Assembly: GCF_039545135.1 (NCBI RefSeq)
Contig: NZ_BAABRU010000004.1
Coordinates: forward strand, 194,427 to 258,426
Origin: Herpetosiphon gulosus
GTDB lineage: Bacteria > Chloroflexota > Chloroflexia > Chloroflexales > Herpetosiphonaceae
Direction: 5' to 3'
DNA: 64,000 nt
Shown: in pieces, positions 3,445-53,394 of the stretch
How the letters are laid out: each line of letters starts with the position of its first letter
Position numbering within the stretch: position 1 is the first letter of the stretch
Translations under genes and position numbers: made by a program
Notes under the pieces: model-generated
The model's input: only the letters and a program-made list of their open reading frames with translations
The model's database searches: none
What the model was told of the DNA's origin: nothing

Positions 3445-3778
3445 GAATTCAGCCTCTTGTGCAGCAGCATTGTCATCCTATTGTAGCACCCCGATCAAGC
3501 CATCTCAATCGTTAGAATGGGCTATTTAGCACTGATAGTCAGCTGAAAACCCTTGACACTCAACCCCTAGAGGGGATTCGCATTGGATCGCCCAAGCAAA
3601 CAGGCAAGTTGGCCCTTGTTGATAGCTGCTCGAAAGCGTTTGATGTTAAAACTACCGCGCCTCAATTCTTAGCACAATCAAATGAGCACGATCTGCGTTA
3701 GTGCTTCCAGTTATGATCATTGACTTATCATTCCAACATGTGCTATACTCGATTTTAAAGAGGAGTATAAGACGACTT

Positions 3779-4360
3779 ATGGCAGGAAAGAAAGCATTTG
3801 AGCCTCAACGGGTTCTCGAAAAAGCCATGAACGCCTTTTGGGAACGTGGTTACGAAGGGCTATCAATTGAAGATCTCGTCCACGTTACGGGAATCGGGCG
3901 CGGTAGTCTCTATGGAACGTTTGGCGATAAACATGCACTGTACCTAGCGGCTCTTAACCAGTATACTGCCGCTATTAAAGCCCAGACTACGGCTATTTTG
4001 GAGCAAACTGGCTCACTCCAAGTTGTATTAGGCCAGCTTTTCCAAGCCCAAGTTGATGCTTTGCTGCACGACCCAGCGCGGCGTGGATGTTTTTTGGTTA
4101 ATGCATCCTTAGAAATTGCTCCGCATGATCATGCCGTTAACGAGATTATCCAGTCAGCATTGAATGAGTTCGAAGAAGCACTCTATCGGCTGCTGATCAA
4201 AGCGCAGGTTGCGGGTGAACTCTCGTGGCAACACGATCCCCATCAATTAGCGCATTTCTTGGTAGCAACCTTTGTCAGCCTGCGCGTGCTGGCGCGGAGC
4301 CAGCAACAGCGGGGAATGTTCGACGATATCGTAAAAACAGCGTTATCGATTTTAAACTAA
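3779..4360 (+). CDS. TetR/AcrR family transcriptional regulator
   Basis: N-terminal HTH LSIEDLVHVTGIGRGSLYGTFGDKHALY. RBS AAGAGGAG sits upstream of the ATG at 3779. The track ORF starts earlier at 3701 but has no RBS. Confidence 0.85.
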   Translation: MAGKKAFEPQRVLEKAMNAFWERGYEGLSIEDLVHVTGIGRGSLYGTFGDKHALYLAALNQYTAAIKAQTTAILEQTGSLQVVLGQLFQAQVDALLHDPARRGCFLVNASLEIAPHDHAVNEIIQSALNEFEEALYRLLIKAQVAGELSWQHDPHQLAHFLVATFVSLRVLARSQQQRGMFDDIVKTALSILN

Positions 4361-4422
4361 ATTTTTTTGATTTCATGTTTGAATAATCATTCAAACATTA
4401 CCATTCATAAAGGAACAAATTA

Positions 4423-5232
4423 ATGACATCGCAGCAAAAGGTTGTGCTCATCACGGGCGCATCATCAGGGATTGGGCAAGCAACAGCAGAATTACTAGCC
4501 GCCAATGGATTTCGGGTCTTCGGCACGAGCCGCAACCCGATTTCGCACAAGCACTCATTTACTTGGCTACCGCTGGATGTCCGATCGGACGATTCGGTAT
4601 ATGCAGCGGTTCAATCGCTGCTCGGCCAGACCGGACGGCTTGACATCCTTATCAATAATGCAGGCTATATGCAGGTTGGGGCGGTTGAGGAAAGTAGTAT
4701 TGCCGATGTGCAGGCTCAGTTCGATACTAATCTGTTCGGTATTATCCGCATGATCAAGGCGGTAATGCCGATTATGCGCCAGCAAGGCAGCGGACACATT
4801 ATCAATGTTAGCTCGATTGTCGGACATATTGCGCCTCCATATGGTGGCCTGTATAGTGCAAGCAAATTTGCCTTGGAAGGCCTGAGTGAATCCCTTAGTG
4901 CCGAGGTTCGGCAATTCGGCGTGAGCGTCTCGTTGGTCGAGCCAAGCTATGTGAATACGCCGTTCGTCGCGCAGCCGCCGACTACCCTGATTGGCGACTA
5001 TTCCCCAGGTCGCCAACGTGCCCAACAAAGCTTCGCCACGAATACCAAGAAAGGTCTGGAGCCTGGCGCAGTGGCTCGCGCGATCCTGCAAGCAGCCACG
5101 AGCCAGCCCCGGCTACGCTACCCCGTTGGACGGGATGGAAAAATAGTCCTGATGCTGCAACGAGTGCTTCCAGAGGCAGCATTTGAGGCGCTCAAACGCC
5201 GCTTGTTCAGCAGTGAAAAGACCGCTGCCTAG
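4423..5232 (+). CDS. Short-chain dehydrogenase/reductase (SDR)
   Basis: VVLITGASSGIGQATA Rossmann motif, NNAG, and the Y-x3-K catalytic dyad (YSASK). Confidence 0.85.
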   Translation: MTSQQKVVLITGASSGIGQATAELLAANGFRVFGTSRNPISHKHSFTWLPLDVRSDDSVYAAVQSLLGQTGRLDILINNAGYMQVGAVEESSIADVQAQFDTNLFGIIRMIKAVMPIMRQQGSGHIINVSSIVGHIAPPYGGLYSASKFALEGLSESLSAEVRQFGVSVSLVEPSYVNTPFVAQPPTTLIGDYSPGRQRAQQSFATNTKKGLEPGAVARAILQAATSQPRLRYPVGRDGKIVLMLQRVLPEAAFEALKRRLFSSEKTAA

Positions 5233-5317
5233 TCTCATACACTGCGAACGGCAGCACGCTGATGGGAAAAGAAATTCCCATCAGCAGCGCCACATCCAAC
5301 GATAGGAGCAAAACCGT

Positions 5318-6322
5318 ATGATGAAAGCCTTCTTCATTGAGCGCTATGGCAACAAGGATCGGGTGCGGACTGGCGATCTGCCAATTCCAGAACTGCGGGA
5401 TACTGATCTATTGATTCAGATCCACGCTGCTGGAGTTAACCCGTTGGATACCAAAATCAGGGACGGCGCGTTCAAAGCCATCTTGCCATATCGCTTCCCG
5501 CTCATTTTGGGCAATGATGTCGCTGGGGTTGTGGTTAAGGTTGGAGCAAAGGTGCAGCGATTCAAGCTGGGCGATGCGGTTTATGCTCGGCCAGCTGCCG
5601 ACCGCATTGGGACTTTTGCCGAATTTATTGCAATCAACGAAGCAGATGTCGCGATCAAACCAAAAGAACTGAGCATGGCCGAAGCGGCTTCCTTTCCGCT
5701 GGTTGGCCTGACTGCTTGGCAAGCCTTGATTGAACAAGCACAGCTCAAAAAAGGGCAAAAAGTTTTCATTCAGGCAGGTTCCGGTGGGGTTGGGACAATT
5801 GCAATTCAGCTGGCCAAACATGTGGGTGCGATTGTCGCGACAACCACGAGCAAGGCAAATTTTGATTTTGTGAAGCGCCTCGGGGCCGATATTGTGATTG
5901 ATTACAAGACCGAGGATTTCGAAACAATCCTGAAGGACTATGATGTGGTCCTGAATAGTCAAGAGGGAACAATCATCGAAAAATCGCTTCGCGTGTTAAA
6001 ACCTGGCGGAACGTTGATCTCGATTTCGGGACCACCTGATCCCGCGTTTGCCCAAGAAATTGGCGCGAAGTGGCCCGTTCGCATGCTTTTGGGCGTTTTG
6101 AGCTATCGCATTCGCAAAAAAGCTCAACAACAGCAGGTACGCTATTCATTTCTGTTTATGCGGGCGAGCGGTGAGCAGCTCGGCGAGCTTAGTTCGTTGA
6201 TCGACGCTGAAATTATCCAGCCGGTTGTGGATCGGAGCTTTGCCTTCGAAGCAACCAAAGAGGCCTTGGATTACGTTGAAACAGGCCGAGCCAAAGGCAA
6301 GGTCGTCGTCACGATGCGCTAA
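5318..6322 (+). CDS. Medium-chain dehydrogenase/reductase (quinone oxidoreductase / zinc-type ADH family)
   Basis: GroES-like N-terminal domain, GAGGVG-like nucleotide-binding motif (QAGSGGVGTIAIQLAK), and a KGKVVV C-terminus typical of the MDR family. Confidence 0.8.
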   Translation: MMKAFFIERYGNKDRVRTGDLPIPELRDTDLLIQIHAAGVNPLDTKIRDGAFKAILPYRFPLILGNDVAGVVVKVGAKVQRFKLGDAVYARPAADRIGTFAEFIAINEADVAIKPKELSMAEAASFPLVGLTAWQALIEQAQLKKGQKVFIQAGSGGVGTIAIQLAKHVGAIVATTTSKANFDFVKRLGADIVIDYKTEDFETILKDYDVVLNSQEGTIIEKSLRVLKPGGTLISISGPPDPAFAQEIGAKWPVRMLLGVLSYRIRKKAQQQQVRYSFLFMRASGEQLGELSSLIDAEIIQPVVDRSFAFEATKEALDYVETGRAKGKVVVTMR

Positions 6323-6393
6323 GCCGTGCTTCGTTGCAATTGAGTAGATGGAATATCCATTTAAATAAACAAATGTGCCCATCTACCAAAGCA

Positions 6394-7386
6394 TCAGAGT
6401 GTCATGCGGAGCGCCTTCGCTGCAAACTCATGCATAAGCGCCTTCAATTCAGCTGGTTGCCGAATCGTAGCTGACAGATCGATCTGTAACAAGCGGTGGG
6501 CAATCGAGGTTAATTCGTAGGTTTCCCGCCGCCAAATAATCCCAACGTCGCTTTCCTCAAAGGTTCCAGCCGCTGGTGGCAGCACATGGCGCACCTGTTC
6601 GATAGTTGCTGCAAAAATAACCTCAACCGCATATGGCCCTGCCATGGTGGCCAACGTAGTGTGCATGTGTTGTAACGCATCGAAGTCTTGGGGATGCTCA
6701 AATGGCTGATTGAGCAACTTCAAGGCTTGAATGCGATCAATGCGAAATGTGCGCAGATCATTGCGTTGGTGACAATAGCCAACGCAGTACCAGTACCCCT
6801 GATAATAGACTATTCCATAGGGATCAAACACCCGTGCCGATTCCTCGCCATTGTATGTTTGATAGCTCAGCCATACCTGCTGTCGCGTATGCACCGCCAC
6901 ACTTAAGCTGGCGACGATGCTTGGCTGCAAAAAGGCAGGCGGTGGAGCAACATGAAACGTAATCGCCTCTTGGAAAGCCCTTACCTGATCAAGCAGAATT
7001 GTTGGCATAACCCGTTCAAGTTTGGCGATTGCACCCTCGATTGCGGTCGCATCAGCTGGAAATTGCAAAGCCTGAATCATGCGTAATCCCAATACCAGTG
7101 CCATGGCCTCAGCCGGATTAATCATCAGGGGCGGGATGGTATAGCCGCGCCCAAGATAGTAAGCACCATCAGGGCCGCGCTCAGCCTCAATCGGAATGCC
7201 CATATCTTGCAACATCACCACATAGCGGCGCACTGTTCGTTGGCTAATTTCGAGGCGGCTGGCAAGTTGAGCACCGCGCATCCGCTGGTGCGATTGTAAG
7301 AGTTCAAGGATGGTTAGCAAGCGGGTTGTTGGGCTATACATCGATTTATAGCTCCTTGGATTAATTAGGTCTGATTCTGACCGCAT
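6394..7386 (-). CDS. HTH + WYL domain transcriptional regulator (YafY/PafBC-like)
   Basis: N-terminal HTH (TRLLTILELLQSHQRMRGAQLASRLEISQRTVRRYVVMLQDMGIPIE) and a central WYL-type segment (YYQGYWYCVGYCHQRNDLRTFRIDRI). The true start may be the internal M at about 7341. Confidence 0.75.
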   Translation of the reverse strand: MRSESDLINPRSYKSMYSPTTRLLTILELLQSHQRMRGAQLASRLEISQRTVRRYVVMLQDMGIPIEAERGPDGAYYLGRGYTIPPLMINPAEAMALVLGLRMIQALQFPADATAIEGAIAKLERVMPTILLDQVRAFQEAITFHVAPPPAFLQPSIVASLSVAVHTRQQVWLSYQTYNGEESARVFDPYGIVYYQGYWYCVGYCHQRNDLRTFRIDRIQALKLLNQPFEHPQDFDALQHMHTTLATMAGPYAVEVIFAATIEQVRHVLPPAAGTFEESDVGIIWRRETYELTSIAHRLLQIDLSATIRQPAELKALMHEFAAKALRMTL

Positions 7387-10054: not shown

Positions 10055-11161
10055 ATGTCGATCGCATTTAACGACCTTGGGCGACATGTCGCCACTATGG
10101 CCGAGGAGATCGAAGCAGCCAGCACCCGGGTGTTGCGCAGCGGTTGGTTTGTTTTAGGTCCAGAAGTTCGCGCCTTTGAAGCAGAATGGGCAGAATATTG
10201 TGGCGCACGCCATTGCATTAGCCTAGCAACTGGCACTGATGCCTTGATTTTAGGCCTCCGTGCCTTGGGCTTGCAAGCTGGCGACGAAGTGTTGACCGTG
10301 GCCAATGCTGGCAGTTACACCACCTTCGCCACCCATACCGTTGGCGCAACCCCACGTTATGTCGATGTTGATTCAGCGAGTTATACGCTTGATCCCAGCC
10401 AATTGGCCGCCGCGATTACCCCACGCACCAAAGTGATTGTGCCGGTGCATTTGTATGGTCAGGTTGCTGATCTTTCGGCGATTTTGGCGATTGCCGCTGA
10501 CCATCAATTACCAGTGCTCGAAGATTGTGCTCAAGCCCACGGGGCACGCTACCAAGGCCAGCACGTCGGCACATTCGGCGCTTTAGCCACATTTTCGTTC
10601 TATCCAACCAAAAATTTGGGCGCGTTGGGCGATGGCGGGGCAATTATTACCAACGACGATGGCTTGGCCGCCCAAATCAAGCAATTGCGCACCTATGGCT
10701 GGGCCAATAAATATCAAGTAACCCTCGAAAAAGGCACCAACAGCCGTCTCGATGAACTTCAAGCAGCTATTTTGCGGGTCAAATTAGCTCATCTTGATGC
10801 CCAAAATAGCCGCCGTCAAGCGCTTGCTGCCCGTTATAACGCTGGCTTAGCCGCAACTCCGCTGCAATGCCCACAGCTCGATAATGCTCAGCATGTCCAG
10901 CATTTGTATGTGGTGCGGGTTGCCGCCGAACAACGCAATGCCCTGCGCCAACATTTGCAAGCAGCAGGCATCGGCAGCGACGTGCATTACCCAATCGCCG
11001 ACCATCAACAGCCAGCTTGGGCCGAGCGCTATCAGGATGTGCATTTGCCGATCACCGAAGCGCTGAGCAATGAAATTCTGTCGTTGCCATGCTACCCTGA
11101 GCTAAGCGATGCCGAAGTTGATCAGGTGATCGACTGCATTCAAGCTTTTTTTGCCGCTTAA
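10055..11161 (+). CDS. DegT/DnrJ/EryC1/StrS family PLP-dependent sugar aminotransferase
   Basis: Typical fold-type I aminotransferase motifs, including ...[22 protein letters not shown] (PLP lysine region). Confidence 0.85.
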
Positions 11162-11327
11162 TACCTCGTACCATGAATCAGGCAGCAGCCACCCAATCAT
11201 TCCCCCGCCTCGCTGCTGCCAAGCCTGCTGAGTTACTTTCGTTTAATCAGCAATCTGCCCGATTGACAAGCAACCCGCGCCTGAATATAGTTGACAGTCA
11301 GCAGCCTTCAAGCCTTGGGGTAAATGT

Positions 11328-13226
11328 ATGCAGCAAATTGAAACCTTATATCTGCCCAACTTAAAACGTAAAGATGATAAACAAGACCCGTATTTGGTTC
11401 AGCGTATTGATGATAACGAAGCAGATACTCCAACCTTAGTTCCTTTGACTCAACTCGATAGCCTCTCACGGGTCAATATTTTAGTTGGTACGAATAATTC
11501 AGGTAAAAGTAGATTTATGCGCTTGTTAACTGAAACAACCAATTTTTCAGTTCGATTAAGAGATGTTGATTTTATCAATCGTACTATAGGAAATGCTATT
11601 GATAAAATTATCAGTACTTATACTTTCATAGGACATACACAAATTAGCAAATATGATACTTCCTTCCTCACGAAATTAAAATCGAAACTGATAACTAAAA
11701 ATAATACAAATACAAGTACTAACTATCAAAATATTTTTGATGTATTTAATCATTTATCAGAATACAATTCAATATATGATCAACTTAAAGACATTAAAAA
11801 TATTTCAAAAGAAATAGTTGAAATTTTAAAATCTACTCAATTAAATCTAACAAAAAATATCTATATCCCAACTATCCGTGGCTTGCGACCCTTAAACAGC
11901 AACTATACTGATTTTTATAAGATGCAAACTATTCAAAGCTATTTTAAAGATGCTGAACATAAACCTGAAATTTTCACAGGTTTAGGGCTTTATCAAGAAC
12001 TACGCCATTATTTGCTTGGTAATAATGATCAGCGTACAAAAATTAGAAAATATCAAGAATTTATCTCGAATAGCCTGTTTGAAGGCAAAGAAGTTACGCT
12101 AATTCCAAGCGAAGAACAAAAGATTGTGGTGGTTAAAATCGGTAATGAGCTTGAACGGCCAATCCATGAGCTTGGCGATGGGATTCAATCAGCAATTATC
12201 TTGACTTTCTTGCCATTTGTAAGTCTTGAGAATTGCATTTTCTTTATCGAAGAACCAGAGCTTTTTCTACACCCCAGCATGCAGCGCAAAATTCTGGAGT
12301 TTTATCATTCTTTAGATCGCCACTTGTTCTTTATGACAACCCATTCTAATCATTTGCTAGATATTACGATTGATATTCCTGAAATTTCAATCTATAGCTT
12401 TCGAAAATTGCTTACCAGCAGCGACGATGACCAAATGCCACAATTTGTTGTTGAGAATGTTGATAACAATCAGAGCAGCTCCTTAGAATTATTGGGGGTA
12501 CGAAATTCATCAGTCTTGTTGGTTAATGCCACAATTTGGGTTGAGGGAATAACCGACCGTTGGTATTTGCGTGAAATGCTCCGAATGTATATGGAAACTT
12601 TGCCAAACCCAAAACCCAAGCTCGAAGAAGATATTCATTATGCTTTTGTCGAATATGGTGGCGATAATATTAACCATTTTTCATTCTTGGATATGGAAGA
12701 GCATCCTATTATCGTAGATCGTTTATGCGCCAAAGCAATTGTTATTATCGATCAAGATGATGAGCAGAAAAAATTAGATCGTAAGCAGCAACTTCAGGCT
12801 AAACTAGGCGATCGTCTAATCATTTTACCCTGTCGTGAAATTGAAAATAGCCTACCGCCAGAAGTTATTCGCTCAGTTGTAATTGAGTATGAAACAACTA
12901 AGCAAAACCCAAAACCCGAATTAAATTCTTTTATATATGCAGATTATCAAAATGAGCCATTAGGGAATTTTATTAAGGATCTTATAATTAAAGGAGCACA
13001 ATCTCGTAGAGGTTGTTATAGTAGTGGATCAGGAACTATTACTCAAAAACTAGATTTCTGCAAAAGAGCACTTAAGTATATTAATCCATTAACCGATGCA
13101 GAATTAGCAAAATTAGACACAGAGGAACGTCAATTGAGGCATCTGGAGTTATTTCAGGCACTACCAGAATCAACTCAACAGATAATTATAAAACTCTATG
13201 ACTTTATCAAAGCACGAAATATTTGA
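11328..13226 (+). CDS. OLD-family ATP-dependent nuclease (ABC-type ATPase + Toprim), standalone (class 1-like)
   Basis: Walker A VGTNNSGKS, ABC-like signature/Walker B region (ELGDGIQSAIILTF...IFFIEEPELFLHP), then Toprim-like motifs (IWVEGITDRW and a DxD in IVIIDQDDEQ). Gene GC is far below its neighbours (roughly 33% versus 55-60%). Confidence 0.65.
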   Translation: MQQIETLYLPNLKRKDDKQDPYLVQRIDDNEADTPTLVPLTQLDSLSRVNILVGTNNSGKSRFMRLLTETTNFSVRLRDVDFINRTIGNAIDKIISTYTFIGHTQISKYDTSFLTKLKSKLITKNNTNTSTNYQNIFDVFNHLSEYNSIYDQLKDIKNISKEIVEILKSTQLNLTKNIYIPTIRGLRPLNSNYTDFYKMQTIQSYFKDAEHKPEIFTGLGLYQELRHYLLGNNDQRTKIRKYQEFISNSLFEGKEVTLIPSEEQKIVVVKIGNELERPIHELGDGIQSAIILTFLPFVSLENCIFFIEEPELFLHPSMQRKILEFYHSLDRHLFFMTTHSNHLLDITIDIPEISIYSFRKLLTSSDDDQMPQFVVENVDNNQSSSLELLGVRNSSVLLVNATIWVEGITDRWYLREMLRMYMETLPNPKPKLEEDIHYAFVEYGGDNINHFSFLDMEEHPIIVDRLCAKAIVIIDQDDEQKKLDRKQQLQAKLGDRLIILPCREIENSLPPEVIRSVVIEYETTKQNPKPELNSFIYADYQNEPLGNFIKDLIIKGAQSRRGCYSSGSGTITQKLDFCKRALKYINPLTDAELAKLDTEERQLRHLELFQALPESTQQIIIKLYDFIKARNI

Positions 13227-13449
13227 ATCTAATCGTATATTCAGCCCATAATCCTGATCCACGAAGGACACGAAGATTGAAACCACGAAGAACGCGAAGA
13301 GCGCGAAGACTGCTTATTCCAACGTCCTGACCCCTGACTGCTGACATCTAATCTCCTCATTTTTCTCTGCGCCTCTGCGTTAAATGCTAATTTCTAATCT
13401 CTGATCTCTACCCTGCGTTTCATCCTTCATCCCTCATAATTCATCCTTA

Positions 13450-13492
13450 AAAAACTACCCCTCACCTCAATATCGAGGCAAGGGGCGTTTTT
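13450..13492. terminator. Bidirectional intrinsic terminator hairpin (CCCCTCACCTC...GAGGCAAGGGG) with flanking T/A runs; terminates lon (minus) and possibly the OLD gene (plus)
   Basis: GC-rich stem read directly, followed by CGTTTTT on the plus strand and preceded by AAAAAA (T-run on the minus strand). It lies 25 nt past the lon stop. Confidence 0.45.
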
Positions 13493-13510: not shown

Positions 13511-15943
13511 TTAGCTGGCGATAACGTCTTGGCGAATAAATGGCATCAGCGCAATTGTCAGCACTTCGTCCATGGTTTCAACCGGAATCAATTGCAGATC
13601 TTGACGCACCTTTTCGGGCAGATCAACAATATCTTTGGCGTTTTCCTTGGGCAAAATGAAGGTTTTGATGCCTGCGCGATGGGCTGCCAAGGTTTTTTCT
13701 TTCAAGCCACCAATTGGCAAGACCCGCCCGCGCAAAGTGACTTCGCCAGTCATGGCTACATCGCGGCGCACAGCCCGACCAGTCATAGCGGAAATCAACG
13801 CAATCGTCAGGGTAATCCCAGCCGATGGGCCATCCTTGGGCACTGCACCTTCGGGCACGTGGATATGGATCGAATGCTCGTCAAAGTAATTTGGCTCAAT
13901 GCCCAACTCTTTGGCACGATAACGCACATACGACATCGCTGCCTGAGCCGATTCCTTCATTACATCGCCCAATTGACCAGTGAGGCGCAATTCGCCTTTG
14001 CCAGTCAATGGCAAGACTTCGAACGAAAGAATATCACCACCCGTTGGTGTCCAAGCAACCCCAGTCGCTACCCCAATTTGATCAGCAACTTCGGCCATGC
14101 CAAAACTGAAATGTTCAGGCCCAAGGTAGATTGGCACATCAGCAGCGTCAATCAAGAACTTGGTTGGCTCGACTTTTTTGGCCTTCTTGCGGCGCTTCTT
14201 GCCTTCTTGCGGTGCTTCTTCATCCTGCGATTCAGCTACCTTGCGGGCAATTTTGCGACACAAGGCCGCAACTTCGCGCTCAAGGTTACGCACACCAGCT
14301 TCGCGGGTATATTCACGAATCAACTTCAAGATCGCAGCATCGGTTAATTCCAACTGGCTGCTTTCGAGGCCATGGAACTCGCGTTGCTTGGGCAACAAGA
14401 AGCCTTGAGCAATCGCTAGTTTTTCATCCTCGGTATAACCGCCAATCTCGATAATTTCCATGCGGTCGCGCAGTGGCGCTGGAATTGGCTCAAGTTGGTT
14501 GGCGGTTGCCACAAACACTACTTGGCTCAAATCAAACGGAATTTCCAAATAGTGATCTGAGAAGGTGTTGTTTTGCTCCGGATCAAGCACTTCTAGCAGT
14601 GCCGAAGTTGGGTCGCCCCGGAAATCATTGCCAATTTTGTCAATTTCATCAAGCATAAAGACTGCTTGACGCGATTTGGAGGTTTTCATGCCTTGAATAA
14701 TCCGGCCTGGCATGGCTCCGATGTAGGTGCGGCGGTGGCCGCGAATTTCGGCCTCGTCGTGTACACCACCCAGCGACTGACGCACGAATGGGCGATCCAA
14801 GGCGCGAGCAATCGAGCGCCCAAGGCTGGTTTTACCAACCCCTGGCGGGCCGACGAAGCACAAAATTGGTGAACGCATTTTGCTACCAGCGAGCTTGCGC
14901 ACCGCCAGATATTCCAAAATCCGCTCTTTGACTTTTTCCAAGCCATAGTGATCTTCGTCAAGCACTTGGCGCGATTGCACCAACGAAATTGCGGCGACTT
15001 GATCAGCATTCCATGGCAAAGCAATAATCCAATCAAGGTAGGTGCGAATCACGCCAGCCTCGGGCGAATTCATGCCTTGTTGGGCGAGACGCTTAATTTC
15101 GTGCAAAGCTTGATCTTTGACATATTGCGGCGCGTTGAGTTCATTGACTTTGCGGCGCAATTCATCAATTGGATCATCACCATCGTCATCTTCGCCTAAT
15201 TCGCGGCGAATTACCCGCATTTGCTCGCGCAAGAAATACTCTTTTTGACCTTGATCAAGCACTTCTTTGGTGTCGGATTGAATTTTGGCGCGGAGCCGCA
15301 ACAGCTCTAATTGACGGGCCAAGATCACCTGCACCCGATTCAAACGTGCCAATGGCTCCATTTCATTCAACAATTCCAAGCGATCTTGGAATGAGAAAGC
15401 GGGGCCGTAGGTCACCAAATCGGCCAAATGGCCAGGTGTCGTAATGCGGTGCACAAAGGCAACTGCTTCTTGAGGAATTTCGCCTAAATAATCGACAAAT
15501 TCAGTAATTTGCTGTTTGACCGTATCCATCAAGGCATCGACTTCGATGCCCTTGGGTTCTTGATCGGGCAAGTAGCGGCAAGCTACACGATAGAAGGGAT
15601 CGCTCTGAACACAATCAACAATCTCAGCGCGGGTAATCCCTTCGAGCACAATTTTTACCGTGCCATCGGGCAATTGGGAGAAATCTTCCAAGCGAGCGAC
15701 CACGCCAACTTTGGGTAGTTGTTGGGGTTCGTGGCCTTTATAAGCTTCAATTTCAGCCTCAGAAACAAAGATCAACAAAACATGTTGATCGTCTTCCATA
15801 GCTTGTTCCATGGCCCGATAAGACTTGCCCTGCCCAACCTGGAGCGGCACAGTCATGTGCGGCATGATCACAATTTCGCCCAATACCACCAACGGTAAAG
15901 TGCGCTCGGTTCCTGTACGAGGGCGGTCTTTTTCTCGGGTCAT
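13511..15943 (-). CDS. lon: ATP-dependent Lon protease (La)
   Basis: Lon N-domain, AAA+ module (GPPGVGKTS, Walker B FMLDEIDK), and the proteolytic domain with the PKDGPSAG serine motif. Confidence 0.95.
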   Translation of the reverse strand: MTREKDRPRTGTERTLPLVVLGEIVIMPHMTVPLQVGQGKSYRAMEQAMEDDQHVLLIFVSEAEIEAYKGHEPQQLPKVGVVARLEDFSQLPDGTVKIVLEGITRAEIVDCVQSDPFYRVACRYLPDQEPKGIEVDALMDTVKQQITEFVDYLGEIPQEAVAFVHRITTPGHLADLVTYGPAFSFQDRLELLNEMEPLARLNRVQVILARQLELLRLRAKIQSDTKEVLDQGQKEYFLREQMRVIRRELGEDDDGDDPIDELRRKVNELNAPQYVKDQALHEIKRLAQQGMNSPEAGVIRTYLDWIIALPWNADQVAAISLVQSRQVLDEDHYGLEKVKERILEYLAVRKLAGSKMRSPILCFVGPPGVGKTSLGRSIARALDRPFVRQSLGGVHDEAEIRGHRRTYIGAMPGRIIQGMKTSKSRQAVFMLDEIDKIGNDFRGDPTSALLEVLDPEQNNTFSDHYLEIPFDLSQVVFVATANQLEPIPAPLRDRMEIIEIGGYTEDEKLAIAQGFLLPKQREFHGLESSQLELTDAAILKLIREYTREAGVRNLEREVAALCRKIARKVAESQDEEAPQEGKKRRKKAKKVEPTKFLIDAADVPIYLGPEHFSFGMAEVADQIGVATGVAWTPTGGDILSFEVLPLTGKGELRLTGQLGDVMKESAQAAMSYVRYRAKELGIEPNYFDEHSIHIHVPEGAVPKDGPSAGITLTIALISAMTGRAVRRDVAMTGEVTLRGRVLPIGGLKEKTLAAHRAGIKTFILPKENAKDIVDLPEKVRQDLQLIPVETMDEVLTIALMPFIRQDVIAS

Positions 15944-40894: not shown

Positions 40895-41341
40895 GAAGTT
40901 CCTAAATCTATTGTGGTAGCAATTGGGATTGCATGGGATTAATCATCGTTGAGATTAAGCTTAACACATTTTAGCCAATTGGTTATTTCACGATCTTCTC
41001 TTTGAGCCATGATATCGGTTCTCTAGCTCCTCGTTTCGCCACCCTTCCGTCCCTCCGCCGGAGGGAAACACAGTGGGTTTTCATCCCCCTGCACCCCCTA
41101 AAGTTCAATTGTTGATTTGCAGTGGTTGCCTGATGAACCTAAAGTTGTGTGATTCCCGATCTCCAGCCTTCGCGATCTTCGCGTTCTTTGCGGTTTCGGT
41201 AACTAATCTGGCAATCCCTATGATTCCAAATGTGCCCAAGATTGTGCATCAAGCATGGCCCAACTTCTGCTACAATAGAAGTGGGAACCGTGTGTTGATG
41301 CGTGCAAAGTCGCATCCTTGAGATCAAAAGGAGTCCATACA

Positions 41342-44933: not shown

Positions 44934-45851
44934 TCACGAATGGCGTGCTAGCAAGACGACAGCTATAAGAATGAGCAAGCCACCGCCAAGTTGCCAGAAG
45001 CTAATCGGTTCGTGCAAAACGACGACCGCAGCTCCGACTGATACCAAAGGTTCCAATGCTGAGATCGTCGATCCCGCAGTCGGGCCAATCCGTTCGAGAC
45101 CAACAAAAAACATAACAATCGCCAGCACGGTGGAAATCAGGGCAATGCCAACGATTGCTAACCAGCCAGCGCTCGTTGCTGGCCACACGGGGCCACGGGC
45201 AAGCATAATCCCAATATACACCACCGCCGCCGCACTCATAATTACCGTCGATGAAGGAATGGCTCCGGCCTGCGCGGTAATTCGGCTCCCCGCCGTGATA
45301 TAGATAGCATAGATCACCGCTCCGCTGATTGCGAAAACGATGCCTAGCGGCTTACCACCACCAATCGGCCCGATTGCCAAGGCCGAGCCTGCCAATGCCA
45401 ACACGAGTGCCAGCACCATACGTGGGGTCAGTCGTTCCTTAAAAAATACAACCGAGATTAAGGTAACCAGACCAGGATAGAGATAGAGCAACACCGCGAC
45501 TAGGCCAGCCGAGGCCATGGTGAGCGCAACAAAATAGGCCATCGACTGGGCGACATAGCCGATTCCACCAAGCAGGATCAAGCCAAGCAGCAGCTTCCCA
45601 CGCGGGAGCTGCTCACCACGAACGCGCAGAATACCAACCATGACCACAGCGGCAATGCTGAAGCGCAAACATAACACCGTGATCGGTTCAGATCCGTCAT
45701 CATAGGCTAGTCGCGCAAATACTCCCAACCAGCCAAAAGCGATCGCCGAAAGCAACATGGCCGCAATCCCAAGCCAGCGCTGGCGGCGAGCGGATGGGTC
45801 GGCGTGATGGGGTGACAAAGAAACCGATGAATCATCAACAGCCTGCTTCAT
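44934..45851 (-). CDS. DMT superfamily (EamA-like) transporter
   Basis: Ten predicted TM helices arranged in two EamA-like halves. Confidence 0.75.
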   Translation of the reverse strand: MKQAVDDSSVSLSPHHADPSARRQRWLGIAAMLLSAIAFGWLGVFARLAYDDGSEPITVLCLRFSIAAVVMVGILRVRGEQLPRGKLLLGLILLGGIGYVAQSMAYFVALTMASAGLVAVLLYLYPGLVTLISVVFFKERLTPRMVLALVLALAGSALAIGPIGGGKPLGIVFAISGAVIYAIYITAGSRITAQAGAIPSSTVIMSAAAVVYIGIMLARGPVWPATSAGWLAIVGIALISTVLAIVMFFVGLERIGPTAGSTISALEPLVSVGAAVVVLHEPISFWQLGGGLLILIAVVLLARHS

Positions 45852-47254: not shown

Positions 47255-47553
47255 ATTGCGATATACGCTTTGTGTTTGGCGACCGTCAGCTATATCGCGA
47301 GTGGAGTATCCTCTGTAAACTAACGCACCTTACCAATTGAATCGATAAAGGGGACAAGATTCTTGGCATGCTGAGATCGCTGTAGGAATGGTAGCCATTC
47401 ATGCGACCGCTGCCAGTTGTTCAGATCAGGAATACGGTGGTTACCCCTGATGATGTATTGATACCAAGCGACTGTGTTTGACGCAGTGCTTTTATTTTTT
47501 GTGCTTAATGGACAAACGCCCACATGATTACTCAGATGGACGCTTGTTGGTTG

Positions 47554-47629
47554 TGGCTCCCTGACTAGGACTCGAACCTAGGACATGCTGATTAACAGTC
47601 AACCGCTCTACCAACTGAGCTATCAGGGA
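47554..47629 (-). tRNA. tRNA-Asn (anticodon GTT), CCA encoded
   Basis: Reverse complement folds as a cloverleaf: acceptor TCCCTGA/TCAGGGA, D-arm GCTC-AGTTGGTA-GAGC, anticodon loop CTGTTAA, T-arm CTAGG-TTCGAGT-CCTAG, discriminator G, then CCA. Confidence 0.85.
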
Positions 47630-47650
47630 TTATGCATTTGTAAAAAGAAG

Positions 47651-47695
47651 TGGCTCCCTGACTAGGACTCGAACCTAGGACCCATTGATTAACAG
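47651..47695 (-). repeat. 45-nt duplicate of the tRNA-Asn 3' end (from anticodon loop to CCA, 2-4 mismatches in the variable loop): candidate att site of the integrated element
   Basis: TGGCTCCCTGACTAGGACTCGAACCTAGGAC..TGATTAACAG matches 47554-47598 of the intact tRNA. It lacks the 5' half, so it is not a second gene. Confidence 0.6.
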
Positions 47696-48624
47696 GTTCG
47701 CCTAAAATGCGAAGCAAGCACCCTGTTTCAACAGGCTGCTTTGAAGGAGGTTTGGTATTTGTTTGCTCGCCAGCAACACCACATTGCTGCAATGCACTGT
47801 CGCCCTAACCAGCATTTTCTTAGAGATCGTTAACGTTCTGCTGGAGTAGGATATGGTACGCTGAAGCCTAACTTGACTCGACACATTCGAGCTTACCAAC
47901 AGGACTATTGATAACGGGTGCTTTAGTACATCAATAGTCTTCCCATTGGCTCTAGCATGCGCTCGTTGCTAGAAACCCAATAACAGGTGGTTGATGCTAT
48001 GACACGCCACCTGCTGGATAAGCAGGACAGATGCTATGACACGCTGCTTATCACCACGCTTCATGGGAATTCAGGATCATTGAATCCATGGAGCTTTACC
48101 ATAGGTCGTCTGGGAGTCCTGCTCACCGACTTCTTTATTTACGAACGCCGCTTGCGGCCTTCATAATTCAATGCGCTCCGGCTTTAACCAATTCATAAAA
48201 GATGGCCGTTCGGAGATTGACGGCCATCGCTCGCCATCGACACAATGCAAGGTTACGATGGTTGAGTTTGATATACCCATGACCTTGACTCAGTGTGTTT
48301 CCTGTCTTCCTCACACCTATTGGTGAATGACGGTTGGCTTTGTGTTGCCGCCAATTTGGAACGGTAACCCTCGCCACAGCCCTTTGCCAGTACCAAACGT
48401 GTAGGTTGCTTTGCTATACCCAAAAAATGGCGACCGCCATTGCTGGTTGTGCAAGCACCCCTTAACGCGGTGTGTCTGAAGACCTGTCATGAGATACCCC
48501 TTTAGCACCACCTGCGGGGGTATCCCATCACATACTCTTTCCGCTCCGCGCGGCCTCGAGTCGAGTATCTGCGAACGCACACGCTATCCCAGTGGGATAC
48601 CGCGATAGATCGAGGTCATGATTA

Positions 48625-49488
48625 ATGATTACGCAATGGATCGAAGAATATTTGTCCGCCAAAATCGCCGAACGCCGCAGCCCTGCTACCATCACTACCT
48701 ACCGTATCCGGTTAGGACGGTTTGGTGCTTGGGTCGTTGAACAACCCAATCAGGTGCTCACTCGTGCGTTATTGCGGGCCTACAGTGCGTACTTAGCCCA
48801 ACAAAACATCAGCATTGCCAGTCACTATAGTTATCTCAACGATGCCCTCGTCCTCGTGCGCTGGCTTGCTGAAGAAGGTTATATTCAACCCATTAAGACC
48901 GATAAACTCAAACCCCGATTACCCAAGCGCTTGCCTGCCCACTACACGATGGATCAAATTAAGCGCCTCCTGCTGGTTGCCGAGCTTCGTGAAAAAGCCA
49001 TGCTCTGTGTCTTACTGGATACCGGCGTTCGGGTCAGTGAACTGATTCAACTCCGCCGGACTAGCTTTGACTCGGAAGGCTGCGCCATGATTCTTGGCAA
49101 AGGCAGCAAGGATCGGTATATCTGGATTTCATCCGTGACCCAAGAAGTCCTTCGAACCTACATCGCCAGTCGGACGGATACGAACCCTGCGCTGTTTGTC
49201 AGCCATCGCCAGCAAAAAACGCTGACGATTAGCGGCGTACACCAGAGCTTCGATCGCTTAGCCTCCGACGCGGAGATCCGCAACGATGTGCGGCGTTTGA
49301 TTCACTCCTTTCGTGCCACCTTCGCCCGCGAACTGATCAAGAAAGGCCTTGATGCAGAAAGTCTACGGGTGTTGATGGGCCATGAAACGATTCAAATGTC
49401 TCTGCACTATGCACAACTCTCATCCCATGAGGCGACCCAAAATCGGCAAGGCGTGAACCTCCTCGAGAAGGTGGAGTCATGCTTATAA
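48625..49488 (+). CDS. Tyrosine recombinase/integrase (XerC/D-like)
   Basis: N-terminal SAM-like domain. Catalytic-domain motifs DTGVRVSEL (R), KGSKDR (K), HSFRATFA (HxxR), LMGHETIQMSLHYAQLS (catalytic Y). Confidence 0.85.
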   Translation: MITQWIEEYLSAKIAERRSPATITTYRIRLGRFGAWVVEQPNQVLTRALLRAYSAYLAQQNISIASHYSYLNDALVLVRWLAEEGYIQPIKTDKLKPRLPKRLPAHYTMDQIKRLLLVAELREKAMLCVLLDTGVRVSELIQLRRTSFDSEGCAMILGKGSKDRYIWISSVTQEVLRTYIASRTDTNPALFVSHRQQKTLTISGVHQSFDRLASDAEIRNDVRRLIHSFRATFARELIKKGLDAESLRVLMGHETIQMSLHYAQLSSHEATQNRQGVNLLEKVESCL

Positions 49489-49497
49489 GCCTCCAGT

Positions 49498-50151
49498 ATG
49501 CCCACCTATCCCGGTAGAAACAAGGGAAAAAGTGTACAGAAAGTCAGCACGTTTTTGACAAAAAACGTGCTGATAGGGGGATCTATGCCCATCGATGTTG
49601 GAATTGGTTTGGCCATGGCCACGATGCTGTATGCCGTGGTGCTTGAACGCTACAAGCACTATTTGGAGCCAGATTGGACGTGGATTGAAGTGGTTGTCGG
49701 AACCCTGCTGTGCGTGACTGCCGCAGGGATCGCCATCCGCCTTACGCCGAACGCCAGCTGGCCCCAGTATGAGCACCAGATCATCGCCAGCTTTGGCATT
49801 GGTGGTGGGGTCATTATTACGTGGCAAGTCTGGCGCATGATCAAACGTCGCCAACAAACCCGTGCGGTTGTCTTTGACCTCGTAAATGGCGACCACCAAG
49901 AAAGGGATGTGGATGCCACGGCGACGACTCCGTTGGCCGAACGTGGTGAACGAACATCGACTCGAAGCGCTAGCGAACGCCGCGCAATCGTCGAAGCAAG
50001 CTATCCGAGCCAAAGAGTTGCTCAACCAAGTGGTGCATCAGCGCTATCACTTGAACAATCCCGAAGCCGTCGAACTTATCCTGACCAAGATCGCCCTGCT
50101 GCTCGCAGAGATCGAGGCCAATCAGGAACGAATTCAGCGCCTCTTGATTGA
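49498..50151 (+). CDS. Hypothetical membrane protein (frame uncertain; overlaps alternative ORF 49886-50188)
   Basis: The first third has two hydrophobic helices (GIGLAMATMLYAVVL, VVGTLLCVTAAGIAI). The rest is Arg/Ser-rich. The alternative frame 49886-50188 encodes a helical 100-aa protein and could be an Xis-like factor. I cannot resolve the two from sequence alone. Confidence 0.3.
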   Translation: MPTYPGRNKGKSVQKVSTFLTKNVLIGGSMPIDVGIGLAMATMLYAVVLERYKHYLEPDWTWIEVVVGTLLCVTAAGIAIRLTPNASWPQYEHQIIASFGIGGGVIITWQVWRMIKRRQQTRAVVFDLVNGDHQERDVDATATTPLAERGERTSTRSASERRAIVEASYPSQRVAQPSGASALSLEQSRSRRTYPDQDRPAARRDRGQSGTNSAPLD

Positions 50152-50304
50152 TGCAGCCCACGGCGAAGAGAAAACGCCCGAGTCGTAAAACCCAGTTGCC
50201 CCAATGGCCATGTGCGATTGGGGCAGCATCCTCATTCCTTGCCCTTCGATAGAGATAGTAGTGTGCTGTGGTGAGTATCCTCCCGCAGCACCGAGGATAG
50301 ATCA

Positions 50305-51900
50305 ATGACGACACCGTTATATGCGCAGGTGCGCACTGCTATTCAGCAGTTGCTGGCAGGCCAGACCCTTGACCTGACCCGTGATTGGGGCGAATGGCTA
50401 TCGATGATCCAAAGTTTAGTCTATGCCTTTGAACAGGGCGGCTCGGCTGCCGTCCAAACCGCACTGGAAACCGCGATGCGGGTTGATAGTCGCGTTGCGG
50501 CGCTGGTGGTTGACCCTGCACCACCCACAGCCTTGCGCACCATGCCACCCTTACCGAGTGAATTGAGCAAAGCCATCCGGCAGCACGGCGCATGTGGCCA
50601 CTGGCTCGATACCTATATCGGCTATGCCAGTTATGCCAGTCCGGTCACGCCCGCGATTTTTCATGAAGCGGCAGGCCTCTTTTTGGCGGCGACCGCGATC
50701 GCGCGGCGGCTGTATCTGCAAATTGGCGAAACCTACTACTACCCCAATGTCTATGCGCTATTTGTGGCTCCTCCTGGGCGCTATGCCAAATCGACGGCGA
50801 TGAAGGTCGTCGAGCGGGTATTGCGTCGCGCAGGTCTTGGCCATTTGCTACTACCCGACAAAAGCACGCCCCAGTCGCTGCTCCAGCAGTTTTCGACCGT
50901 CATTCCTGACAAACTGGACAGCTACAGTGATTACGACCGTGAGCAATGGCTACTCGCTCGCGCTCAAGCGGCCCAACGGGCATGGTTGCTTGATGAAGCG
51001 GGATTTCTCTTCAGCGATATGAAGAAAGAGTATATGGCCGAGCTGCTCTCGCTCTTACTCAAGCTGTTTGATAATCCCGAATACTTGGCCCACGAAACCA
51101 TCACCCATGGCCGAACAACCATCCGTGATGCCAGTCTTTCATTCCTTGGCGCAACCACACCGAAAAACATCGAGGAGCATCTGCGCAGCGAAAAGCTGTG
51201 GGATGAAGGCTTATGGAGTCGCTTCGCGATTCTGATTCCTGAGCACGACCCGATTTATGCCGAGTTTCCTGATGAACTCACCATGCCCCCGGCGCTGCTC
51301 GATGGCCTGAAACACCTCGATTTGCTGTTTCCGAAGCCCGACGCTGAACTGGTTGATGACGTACCCGAGGAAAATATCAAGCGCTTTGTGCGGATCTATA
51401 ACGAGCATCCCCCCAGCGCTATCCGCCTCGCGCCCGGGGTCATGAGTCTCTGGAAACGCTATGACAAGGCCGTCCGGTTTGACCTGCCCAATAACGGCTT
51501 ACCCGACACGCTGTATGCCAGCTATGCCCGTTTCCCGGGGCATGTGTTGCGGGTGGCCATGATTCTGGCCGCCATGGATTGCCCTGAGTTACCCGTGATG
51601 ATGCAGCTCGATCACCTCAAACGCGCAATCACGATCGTCGAGCGCTGGCGCAGCGACTTGCATCGGATTTGGAGCGATGGGATTCGGAGTGAAGAAACCA
51701 AGCTGGGAGATAAATTGGTCGGCATGCTCAAAGCCTCGCTCTCGGGCTTGACTGTGCGCGATATCTGCCGCCAAACCAACCAATCCAAAAAAGAGATCAC
51801 CGAAGTCCTTGAAGTCTTACGCCTCGCAGGCCAAATTGACGTGCTGGAGACCAAAGCCGCCAACGGTCGGGTGATGCAACTGTGGAGATATAGCGCATGA
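50305..51900 (+). CDS. Hypothetical replication-associated protein (DUF3987-like; family assignment tentative)
   Basis: 531-aa ORF just upstream of the iterons and the primase gene. No Walker A. Family recall is weak. Confidence 0.45.
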   Translation: MTTPLYAQVRTAIQQLLAGQTLDLTRDWGEWLSMIQSLVYAFEQGGSAAVQTALETAMRVDSRVAALVVDPAPPTALRTMPPLPSELSKAIRQHGACGHWLDTYIGYASYASPVTPAIFHEAAGLFLAATAIARRLYLQIGETYYYPNVYALFVAPPGRYAKSTAMKVVERVLRRAGLGHLLLPDKSTPQSLLQQFSTVIPDKLDSYSDYDREQWLLARAQAAQRAWLLDEAGFLFSDMKKEYMAELLSLLLKLFDNPEYLAHETITHGRTTIRDASLSFLGATTPKNIEEHLRSEKLWDEGLWSRFAILIPEHDPIYAEFPDELTMPPALLDGLKHLDLLFPKPDAELVDDVPEENIKRFVRIYNEHPPSAIRLAPGVMSLWKRYDKAVRFDLPNNGLPDTLYASYARFPGHVLRVAMILAAMDCPELPVMMQLDHLKRAITIVERWRSDLHRIWSDGIRSEETKLGDKLVGMLKASLSGLTVRDICRQTNQSKKEITEVLEVLRLAGQIDVLETKAANGRVMQLWRYSA

Positions 51901-52185
51901 GAAGTGTCATAAGTGTCATGAAGTGTCATAAACGGTTTATGACGCTAAAAACCCACTTGGGGAGCCGCTTCCTTGAGAAGTGTCATAGTGTCATAAGGGG
52001 ACATGTCCAATTTAATAAGGAACATGTACGCGAGACCGATGAGACCACACAAAATCAAAAAATAGCATGACACTTCTGACACTATGACACTTCTCCGTTC
52101 TATCCCATTGGAAAGCCCTAAATCGTTGATTTTGGCTGCATGACACTTCTCTGACACTTCATGACACTTCTCGTGGGAGGGTTCA
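51901..52185. promoter_or_regulatory. Iteron field: at least 10 copies of AAGTGTCAT / ATGACACTT in direct and inverted orientation (candidate origin or primase/initiator binding sites)
   Basis: Direct copies at 51901-51930 and 51977-51996. Inverted copies at 52067-52096 and 52141-52172. Read directly from sequence. Confidence 0.55.
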
Positions 52186-53322
52186 ATGATTGAACATCTT
52201 TCGGGCGATGATTTTCTTTCTTTGGTTGGCCAGCGCACCGCCCTGCGCAAAGTGGCCGCAACCAATGGCGGTGAATGGGCGGGAGCATGCCCTTTGTGTG
52301 GAGGGAAGGATCGCTTTCGGGTGCAACCGCATGGGGATCGTGGTGGCCGCTGGTGGTGTCGCAGTTGTCGCGATGGCCAGCCGTGGGCTTCGGATATTGA
52401 TTTTGTCTTTCTACGCGATCACGGCTTTATCCCCAGTACCGATCATCCAGAGTGGCCTGCGTTGATCAAAGAGGCTTTTGCCACACTGGGGTTGACGATC
52501 GAGCAATCACGACCATCGACGAAGGTCGTCCCTGACCCTGAGCCACCGAATGATTGTGAGCCACCCGCTGCGCTTTGGCAACAAGCCGCCCTGAGTTTTC
52601 TTGGCTACGCGGTTGATATGTTGTGGAAGGATGGGGATAGCCAGCCCTCGCCACGCACCTACTTACACCAGCGTGGCCTGACCGATCATACGCTCCGCGC
52701 TGCCGCGATTGGCTACAACCCCAAACCGCTCTACCGTCCGCTGCACAAGTGGGGACTGACAGACCCGAAGAAAGATGGCGTGTGGTTGCCTGCGGGCTAT
52801 GTGATCCCATGGTTTTGTGATGGGCAGCTCTGGAAGCTCTCGATTCGCCAAACGACCCCGCGCGACGAGGGCATGAAATACGTGACGATTGCTGGCAGCA
52901 GCAATGTGCCCTATGGCATTGATACCTTCCGCGCAGGCCGCCCGGGTATTCTGGTGGAAGGGCCGATTGATGCGTTGGTGGCCCAACAAGCACTTGGCCA
53001 ATTCGAACGCCATGGGCAACCACTCAGCGGGGTTGCGGCGATTGGCACAACCCAAGGGCGCGGCTTTCGTTGGCTCGTCCAATACAGCCTCTGTCAGCCG
53101 CTCTTCATTGCCACCGATGCCGATCAGGCAGGCGATAAGGCCGCTGCCTATTGGCTCGATATCTTCAAAGGCAAAGAGGTTGCCCGCATGCGGCCCGACC
53201 CGCACGATTTTGGCACGATGGCGGTGCAGTGTGGCATGGATTTACGGTCGTGGATTGCCACCCATCTTGATCGCTGGTGGACGGGCGACCTCGCCCCTAG
53301 CCCGATTCAATCAGTTGCCTAA
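52186..53322 (+). CDS. DNA primase, zinc-finger + Toprim type (DnaG-like, element-encoded)
   Basis: CPLCGGKDRFRV...WWCRSC zinc-binding motif. Toprim Glu in ILVEGPIDAL and DxD in FIATDADQAGDKAA. Confidence 0.7.
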   Translation: MIEHLSGDDFLSLVGQRTALRKVAATNGGEWAGACPLCGGKDRFRVQPHGDRGGRWWCRSCRDGQPWASDIDFVFLRDHGFIPSTDHPEWPALIKEAFATLGLTIEQSRPSTKVVPDPEPPNDCEPPAALWQQAALSFLGYAVDMLWKDGDSQPSPRTYLHQRGLTDHTLRAAAIGYNPKPLYRPLHKWGLTDPKKDGVWLPAGYVIPWFCDGQLWKLSIRQTTPRDEGMKYVTIAGSSNVPYGIDTFRAGRPGILVEGPIDALVAQQALGQFERHGQPLSGVAAIGTTQGRGFRWLVQYSLCQPLFIATDADQAGDKAAAYWLDIFKGKEVARMRPDPHDFGTMAVQCGMDLRSWIATHLDRWWTGDLAPSPIQSVA

Positions 53323-53394
53323 GACCTGAATGTTTTCTCCTGATATTTAGCGGCGATGGGTGGGTGTATCCCATCCATCGCCGAGGAGCCTGTT

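Follow-up and report, generated by a model that had tools for sequence, protein, structure and literature searches.

An AT-rich gene between degT and lon

We analysed a gene for an OLD (overcoming lysogenization defect) family protein in a 64,000-nucleotide (nt) stretch of the Herpetosiphon gulosus genome (contig NZ_BAABRU010000004.1, positions 194,427 to 258,426), hereafter the window. The gene is an ATG-started open reading frame (ORF) of 632 amino acids (aa) in the ORF listing, at 11328..13226 on the plus strand. It lies between a 368-aa ORF (10055..11161, plus strand), identified by Pfam as a DegT_DnrJ_EryC1 aminotransferase (E 4e-118), and a convergent 810-aa ORF (13511..15943, minus strand) for Lon protease (Pfam Lon_C, E 3e-91). 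Sliding-window guanine-plus-cytosine (GC) content is 0.27-0.38 over 11250-13250, as against about 0.51-0.55 on either side. The OLD-like gene itself has a GC of 0.339 and a third-position GC (GC3) of 0.276, compared with 0.539 and 0.526 for degT and 0.508 and 0.524 for lon. A preliminary description of this DNA had proposed an AT-rich standalone ORF between degT and lon with a GC far below that of its neighbours. The ORF listing, the Pfam matches and the GC trough all support this, the composition is foreign to the surroundings, and every motif quoted in that description was found in its place.

According to the ORF list and Pfam, the ORF has no second co-oriented gene next to it in the window, nor a gene for a helicase or a reverse transcriptase, and the 284 base pairs (bp) between it and lon contain no ORF. 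The earlier statement that there is no partner helicase or second gene nearby therefore holds for the window, but it describes a derived state in which a NUDIX gene is missing (see below). A 63-aa ORF at 11173-11364, which overlaps the start of the OLD-like gene, gave no family match and was treated as spurious. The window surroundings, i.e., DegT, lon and a two-component system, are not a defence island. The window copy is a real, AT-rich, horizontally mobile gene that encodes a divergent member of the OLD family. Its features are given below; L numbers designate related loci in other sequences, L001 being that of H. geysericola.

11243..13250 (approximate), plus strand: AT-rich mobile cassette in its surviving form (promoter, OLD-like gene, junction at which NUDIX is missing); homology to the EamA-locus copies L083 and L001 starts about 85 bp before the ATG, and the GC trough covers 11250-13250
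11263..11291, plus strand: sigma-70-like promoter, TTGACA-17-TATAGT, 11 of 12 matches, with its end 37 nt short of the ATG and a GGGG ribosome-binding site downstream of it; both hexamers are kept in four cassette copies at two loci
11328..13226, plus strand: coding sequence of the 632-aa OLD-family ATPase-Toprim protein
11487..11510, plus strand: Walker A (P-loop) GTNNSGKS, aa 54-61; G54, N56, N57, G59, K60 and S61 are invariant in 38 homologues
11526..11852, plus strand: four helices inserted after Walker A and ahead of the IPTLRGLR motif, aa 67-175, a hypervariable segment delimited by a drop in identity, a blastn break and the modelled helices
12171..12353, plus strand: signature-like LGDGIQS, Walker B-like FFIEEPE, D-loop LHP and H-loop TTHSNH, aa 282-342, with invariant G283, D284, G285, E308-E311, H315, P316 and H339-H342; aligns to TsOLD 6p74 and AriA
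12525..12857, plus strand: Toprim core, aa 400-510; proposed ligands are E406, D475 and D477 at site A and D410, E504 and E506 at site B
12858..13223, plus strand: C-terminal helical region, aa 511-632, recognised by secondary structure, pLDDT and alignment, with invariant R560, Y564 and K574
13095-13151, plus strand: 19-aa insertion DAELAKLDTEERQLRHLEL, aa 590-608, present in none of the 37 other aligned homologues
13227..13246, plus strand: junction at which NUDIX is missing; within about 17 nt of the OLD stop begins sequence that matches L085 at and just after its NUDIX stop
13259..13309, plus strand: short direct repeats CCACGAAG / CGCGAAGA in the downstream spacer, common to L085 and partly to L001
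13457..13486, minus strand: GC-rich hairpin with T-runs on both strands, the lon terminator and probably the point where the OLD transcript ends as well

An ABC ATPase joined to an OLD-type Toprim domain

Over aa 46-345, the N-terminal half passes the Pfam cut-offs for AAA_15 (62.1 bits, cut-off 32.1; E 9.4e-17) and AAA_21 (54.8 bits, cut-off 27; E 2e-14). Conservation was assessed in an alignment of 38 homologues with 38-68% identity, in which invariant residues occur in the motifs GxNNxGKS (aa 54-61), IPTLRGLR (aa 180-188), LGDGIQS (aa 282-288), FFIEEPE (aa 305-311), LHP (aa 314-316) and TTHSNH (aa 337-342). Since K60, E308/E309 and H339 are invariant, this half has the ABC-superfamily ATPase of the OLD family, and its motifs look competent. 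When the family profile was compared with solved structures, it retrieved TsOLD 6p74 (E 2.3e-9), AriA (E 4e-6) and then PtuA.

The C-terminal half did not pass the Pfam test for a Toprim domain, and its fold was therefore tested directly by structural models and profile comparison. The search with hidden Markov models that the preliminary description had suggested was thus positive for AAA_15 and AAA_21, but OLD-like_TOPRIM stayed below its cut-off and DUF4435 was not matched. Sub-threshold OLD-like_TOPRIM matches were found at the same place in 20 of the 38 relatives, with a best E of 0.002. AlphaFold modelled the full-length protein with a predicted local distance difference test score (pLDDT) of 84.9 and a predicted template modelling score (pTM) of 0.82, and aa 349-632 alone with a pLDDT of 85.9. 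Using Foldseek, the full-length model was matched to the retron-Eco8 OLD protein (E 5e-12), TsOLD (6e-9) and GajA (1e-8). By hhalign, the family profile aligned with a canonical Paenibacillus OLD protein with a probability of 95.5%, the alignment extending from the signature motif to the first Toprim strand and placing WVEGITDR on IVEGDTEY, so that E406 and D410 are aligned to E and E of the target. The latter passes OLD-like_TOPRIM itself (E 3.7e-16). In addition, the PADLOC models for Old, GajA and fused AriAB each gave a partial alignment (aa about 270-530, about 52 bits) that runs into the Toprim region with an E of about 1e-14.

The acidic residues of this region form an E-x3-D, DxD, ExE pattern that includes the motifs WVEGITDR (aa 404-411) and IIDQDD (aa 473-478). 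Five of them, E406, D410, D475, D477 and E506, do not vary, and E504 has a conservation of at least 90%. The ligand layout, E-x3-D / DxD / x-E, agrees with that of TsOLD, in which E377, D431 and D433 bind metal A, and D381, S478 and E480 bind metal B (PMC7049728); E504 and E506 are putative ligands of metal B. An invariant EDxHYxFVEYGGxN block (aa 434-447), placed after the first Toprim strand and ahead of the DxD motif, is specific to the subfamily. The Toprim core is followed in the model by seven helices within aa 511-630, a region of about 120 aa. Structure and profile comparison thus supported the OLD architecture proposed initially, an ABC ATPase and then a Toprim domain of the OLD-type fold, and the protein is an OLD-family ATPase-Toprim protein. 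One of the examples that the preliminary description gave for this architecture was imprecise, i.e., PARIS AriA, which is an ATPase only, the Toprim domain residing in AriB (PMC12392090).

Comparison with the known OLD classes

With Class 1 (P2 Old, TsOLD 6P74, Vc OLD, YbjD/OldB) the window protein shares the EEPE Walker B glutamate, the degenerate ABC signature and the ligand layout described above. A standalone gene in variable neighbourhoods, as in Class 1, is seen in the window and in more distant relatives, but not in the four closest ones, which carry a NUDIX gene downstream. However, Class 1 proteins are taken to be 500-600 aa long (PMC12392090), whereas the window protein has 632 aa and members of its subfamily typically 610-630 aa. 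The helical region of about 120 aa, with its seven helices after the Toprim core, also sets it apart from TsOLD, which has no C-terminal helical domain; Class 2 enzymes do have one, which contributes K562 to the active site (PMC7049728). The window protein differs further from Class 1 in falling below the OLD-like_TOPRIM cut-off, in its extra EDxHYxFVEYGGxN block, in the hypervariable helical insertion after Walker A and in the NUDIX gene with which its nearest relatives are paired. The assignment to class 1 in the preliminary description is therefore consistent with the gene context, but not with the length of the protein or its helical tail.

Compared with Class 2, i.e., Gabija GajA (BpOLD C-terminal 6NK8, BcGajA 8SM3), identity is only 15-18%, and neither the window gene nor any of the relatives examined has a UvrD/PcrA-like gajB gene next to it. 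The effector of retron Eco8, which represents Class 3, is the top Foldseek match of the full-length window model (E 5e-12), and the homologue in a Vibrio prophage is annotated as 'Retron_I_B ATPase_TOPRIM COG3593'. A reverse transcriptase gene was found next to neither the window gene nor the relatives examined, no search for non-coding RNA having been made. Class 5 (Cran1) is found in archaea (Sulfolobales), its gene forming an operon with one for a membrane protein (PMC12796447). In contrast, the hosts of this subfamily are bacterial (Chloroflexia, Acidobacteria, Bacillota, Vibrio), and no conserved membrane-protein partner accompanies it.

We also considered a fused protein of the PARIS type (Class 4, AriA-AriB), for which phage anti-restriction proteins would be the trigger and tRNA the cleavage target. 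The window protein is fused, whereas AriA and AriB are split, although a fused AriAB also exists. The AriA models that ranked as the top two have the same lengths and alignments as AAA_21 and AAA_15 and are thus not specific to PARIS, and the AriAB model was matched over only about 250 of its 694 positions (297-545), at a score equal to that of the Old and GajA models. DUF4435 had no match even at an E of 1 in the query or its 38 relatives, and BpOLD and TsOLD are structurally closer than AriB. A protein of the PARIS type is consequently very unlikely.

The subfamily is about equally distant from Classes 1, 2 and 4. In a published phylogeny, the uncharacterised OLD clades that are additional to Classes 1-5 number at least 11 (PMC12796447), and the subfamily probably falls in one of these.

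Size, distribution and neighbourhoods of the subfamily

In a phmmer search of 1.84 billion cluster representatives (50% identity), the C-terminal 284 aa matched 431 clusters at E <= 1e-30 and 1155 at E <= 1e-10. Among the matches listed, nearly all proteins have 600-650 aa, with the domain at the C-terminal end. A metagenome scan with the family alignment yielded mostly distant AAA_15 proteins and only about six loci of true members.

We examined the neighbourhoods of seven more distant relatives. None had a conserved partner gene or a NUDIX gene, and five had no adjacent co-oriented gene whatever. Their surroundings vary and are frequently of the defence type; the neighbours included DUF4365 and TIR genes in one case, GmrSD and T5orf172 in Priestia megaterium, and housekeeping genes in two genomes. 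Homologues are carried by Bacillus plasmids, in the case of one B. cereus plasmid next to a gene for a TrlF-like ATPase. A member with 33% identity (L169, Vibrio phage 10N.286.45.F8_PE002, 4926-8134) belongs to a 186-like prophage, where it is flanked by the cI/endolysin region and the integrase gene. It shares 4 nt with an overlapping, co-oriented DUF3427/NOV_C gene that matches PADLOC PDC-S36 and PD-T4-1, an unrelated gene of the defence type, and this pair may be a different two-gene arrangement of the same ATPase-Toprim protein. In Paenibacillus sp. FSL H7-689, a canonical OLD gene (L173, 8554-10287, minus strand) is located 1.7 kilobases (kb) from a member of the subfamily, so that one small island holds two OLD types. 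Gene GC was 0.30-0.37 in every subfamily member examined, with host flanks at 0.30-0.52.

An OLD+NUDIX cassette in the closest relatives and the probable loss of NUDIX in the window

The four closest homologues are found in H. geysericola (60% identical) and on three assembled contigs (65%, 79% and 94%). All four are followed, 8-12 bp downstream, by a gene for a NUDIX hydrolase of 160-178 aa (Pfam NUDIX, E 7e-11), in which the REVAEE core of the NUDIX box is intact by eye. No NUDIX partner was found outside this closest clade in about 90 other loci. The cassette occurs in two settings: after an EamA transporter gene in L001 and L083, and probably also in L082, and after DegT in L085. The upstream genes of L085 (WYL regulator, glyoxalase, HisKA_3 kinase, response regulator and DegT) are about 92% identical to the window at the nt level. 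Homology between the two settings begins about 85 bp before the ATG and ends about 25 nt past the NUDIX stop. Given these boundaries and the promoter shared between the two loci, the promoter, the OLD gene and the NUDIX gene moved as one unit. The NUDIX proteins of the two loci are 84% identical, and their genes have a host-like GC of 0.52, as against 0.35 for the OLD gene.

In the window, the OLD stop codon occupies 13224-13226, and 13238-13447 matches L085 12377-12588, the NUDIX gene of L085 being located at 11905-12390. When the four NUDIX proteins were compared with the window by tblastn, no match and no remnant were detected. By parsimony on these sequences, the NUDIX gene was most likely deleted in the window lineage, with a loss of about 490 bp, and the window copy now resembles the standalone arrangement of the remaining subfamily. 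The term "single-gene" used in the preliminary description accordingly applies to the window copy but not to its closest clade, which has a two-gene arrangement with NUDIX at two loci. Recent acquisition, as suggested there, was not substantiated: L085 carries the gene at the same DegT locus with flanks of about 92% nt identity, and the low GC, being a trait of the whole subfamily, is no evidence for recent arrival.

These findings raise the question of whether the gene is half of a two-gene OLD-NUDIX system, of which the window copy would be a non-functional, decaying or unregulated remnant. The NUDIX gene next to all four of the closest homologues (60-94% identical) speaks for this, as does the occurrence of the pair at two unrelated loci, which indicates movement as a unit; moreover, the window lacks the NUDIX gene and has its unique 19-aa insertion near the C-terminus, and the L083 copy is split inside the variable segment. 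On the other hand, the window ORF is intact and keeps all family-invariant residues, and its promoter is intact as well. All seven distant relatives lack NUDIX and five of them lack an adjacent co-oriented gene, so that the protein can evidently work alone, and the difference in GC between the two genes is consistent with NUDIX being a co-mobilised passenger. We therefore regard a remnant of this kind as unlikely.

A hypervariable insertion after Walker A

The window protein and its L085 counterpart differ in a strongly regional manner, as follows.

aa 1-66: 87-95% identity to the L085 copy
aa 67-175: 11%
aa 176-399: 79-100%
aa 400-520: 74%
aa 521-590: 56%
aa 591-632: 29%

Mean identity over aa 67-175 was 13% across 37 homologues, and the blastn match to L085 breaks exactly at 11528-11852. 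The model shows this segment as four inserted helices that separate Walker A from the RGLR motif. A hypervariable module with such sharp bounds suggests either cassette-like exchange or diversifying selection on a surface for oligomerisation or trigger sensing, and aa 67-175 are the best candidate for a specificity or oligomerisation module. In L083 (1355-3216), stops inside this segment split the homologue into ORFs of 129 aa and 489 aa, so that it is a pseudogene unless the AT-rich sequence was misassembled.

A more far-reaching proposal is that the OLD+NUDIX pair is a functional two-gene defence system and a further OLD class, in which NUDIX regulates or complements the nuclease and aa 67-175 form a swappable phage-sensing module. 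NUDIX might, for example, remove a nucleotide signal, or act on RNA 5' ends or NAD-derived molecules. We put this forward tentatively, as a possibility on the low side. If true, the window copy would be a natural NUDIX-less derivative showing whether the partner is dispensable.

Synteny and mobility of the cassette

The window is 87% identical at the nt level to H. geysericola L001 over 7 kb, and its Lon is 98% aa identical to Lon of a Chloroflexia metagenome-assembled genome. L002, from the nearest genome in the species collection, is 88% nt identical across lon and beyond. Downstream of lon it carries nuoN, nuoM and nuoL, and identity with the window starts at 13414, which is a rearrangement breakpoint in L002 and not a clean empty site. 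In H. geysericola the homologue occupies a different locus. A comparison of related genomes for presence or absence, as recommended at the outset, thus showed that the gene is not syntenically conserved across the lineage. In the window itself, BacA comes after the EamA gene (44934-45851), in place of the genes found around the cassette in L083, so that no clean empty site was found there either. No integrase gene, tRNA gene, terminal repeats or transposon- or integron-like ends were detected beside the cassette, where there were only short, chance-level repeats and CGAAG repeats. Movement by homologous or illegitimate recombination is our default assumption.

Several further features of the window were recorded. 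The spacer between the OLD-like gene and lon is filled, at 13259-13309 and 13339-13450, by the direct repeats CCACGAAG / CGCGAAGA and by TC-rich motifs such as TTCATCCTTCATCCCTCATAATTCATCC. Since relatives of these repeats recur in L085, L001 and L002, they may represent a small dispersed intergenic repeat of these genomes. A 67-nt dispersed repeat at 41035-41101 has two copies in L002 (2611-2677 and 2790-2856) with 94% identity. A gene for a WYL-domain helix-turn-helix regulator (PafC-like; 6394-7386, minus strand) lies 4 kb upstream of the OLD-like gene and occupies that position in L085 too. Defence genes often have WYL regulators near them, but no link between this one and the OLD-like gene was found. 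Just upstream of it, a three-gene block at 3677-6402 codes for a TetR-family regulator, a short-chain dehydrogenase and a zinc alcohol dehydrogenase. As this block is missing from L085, which is otherwise about 92% identical, it is an accessory indel. Finally, 47515-54772, which includes tRNA-Asn (47554-47629), is 87% identical to L001 1-7254, which codes for a phage-type integrase, a DUF3987 protein, a primase-like Zn-ribbon/Toprim protein and a ParM-like protein. The stretch resembles an integrated element beside tRNA-Asn. It adjoins the EamA locus, where other genomes have the OLD-NUDIX cassette.

Function of the window protein and its significance

We consider it highly probable that the window gene encodes a divergent OLD-family member, with an ABC ATPase, an OLD-type Toprim domain with a two-metal site and a helical tail, which is likely a defence nuclease and is carried by a mobile cassette whose NUDIX gene has most likely been deleted here. 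By analogy with the behaviour of the family, the protein most likely acts as a phage-defence or abortive-infection nuclease. ATP binding or hydrolysis by dimerising ABC heads would gate the two-metal Toprim nuclease; upon a phage cue, the Toprim site would cut nucleic acid, by DNA nicking or tRNA cleavage, and this would stop phage replication or kill the infected cell. The gene travels as a small AT-rich cassette with its own promoter. Amongst characterised proteins, Vc OLD nicks DNA (PMC12392090), P2 Old cuts the anticodon stem of tRNA-Thr (PMC12445682) and AriB cleaves tRNA. OLD substrates differ in this way (DNA versus tRNA), and that of the window protein may be either.

A number of results count against this interpretation. 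Pfam OLD-like_TOPRIM (PF20469) reached only 13.8 bits at aa 400-452 (E 0.09), compared with a cut-off of 23.2. The C-terminal model alone gave a best Foldseek E of 0.03, which is below significance, although GajA and retron Eco8 ranked first. With both the single sequence and the family profile, solved structures were matched by the ATPase half only. In PADLOC and NCBIfam there was no full-length model match, the best NCBIfam model being MADS3 ATPase, which at 31.6 bits versus a cut-off of 420 is uninformative. The two-metal site is predicted from the sequence positions of E406, D410, D475, D477, E504 and E506. If the NUDIX protein is an obligate partner, the window copy may be inactive.

Activity might instead reside in the ATPase half with the Toprim domain dispensable, or the protein might have a chromosomal role outside defence, as archaeal Cran1 has. 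There is precedent for both, in that the Toprim domain of E. coli YbjD/OldB is dispensable, its ATPase domain being essential for the phage phenotypes (PMC13261556), and OLD proteins can have cell-cycle roles, as in the case of Cran1 (PMC12796447). The DegT, lon and two-component neighbourhood, which is not a defence island, is likewise compatible with a chromosomal role. However, the invariance of the Toprim acidic residues and of other C-terminal residues in the 38 homologues argues for a selected catalytic site, and the patchy distribution, AT-rich composition, plasmid and prophage copies and variable locus argue against a housekeeping function. We thus consider either of these alternatives quite unlikely and favour the divergent defence nuclease.

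Taken together, the earlier reading of the window gene is right in outline, and the gene belongs to a divergent, uncharacterised clade of a known family. This result is useful for annotation and for the choice of constructs, and it leaves the picture of the OLD mechanism unchanged. The OLD+NUDIX cassette, the NUDIX-less derivative in the window and the hypervariable insertion are of value for follow-up work. Two natural experiments are at hand, i.e., alleles at the same locus that differ almost only in the helical insertion, and copies with and without NUDIX. Of all branches of this widespread defence family, that of the standalone OLD nucleases is the most poorly understood, with tests of only a few members (P2 Old, Vc OLD, YbjD), and the large subfamily described here (431 clusters at 50% identity, E <= 1e-30) escapes both the Pfam Toprim model and the PADLOC system models.

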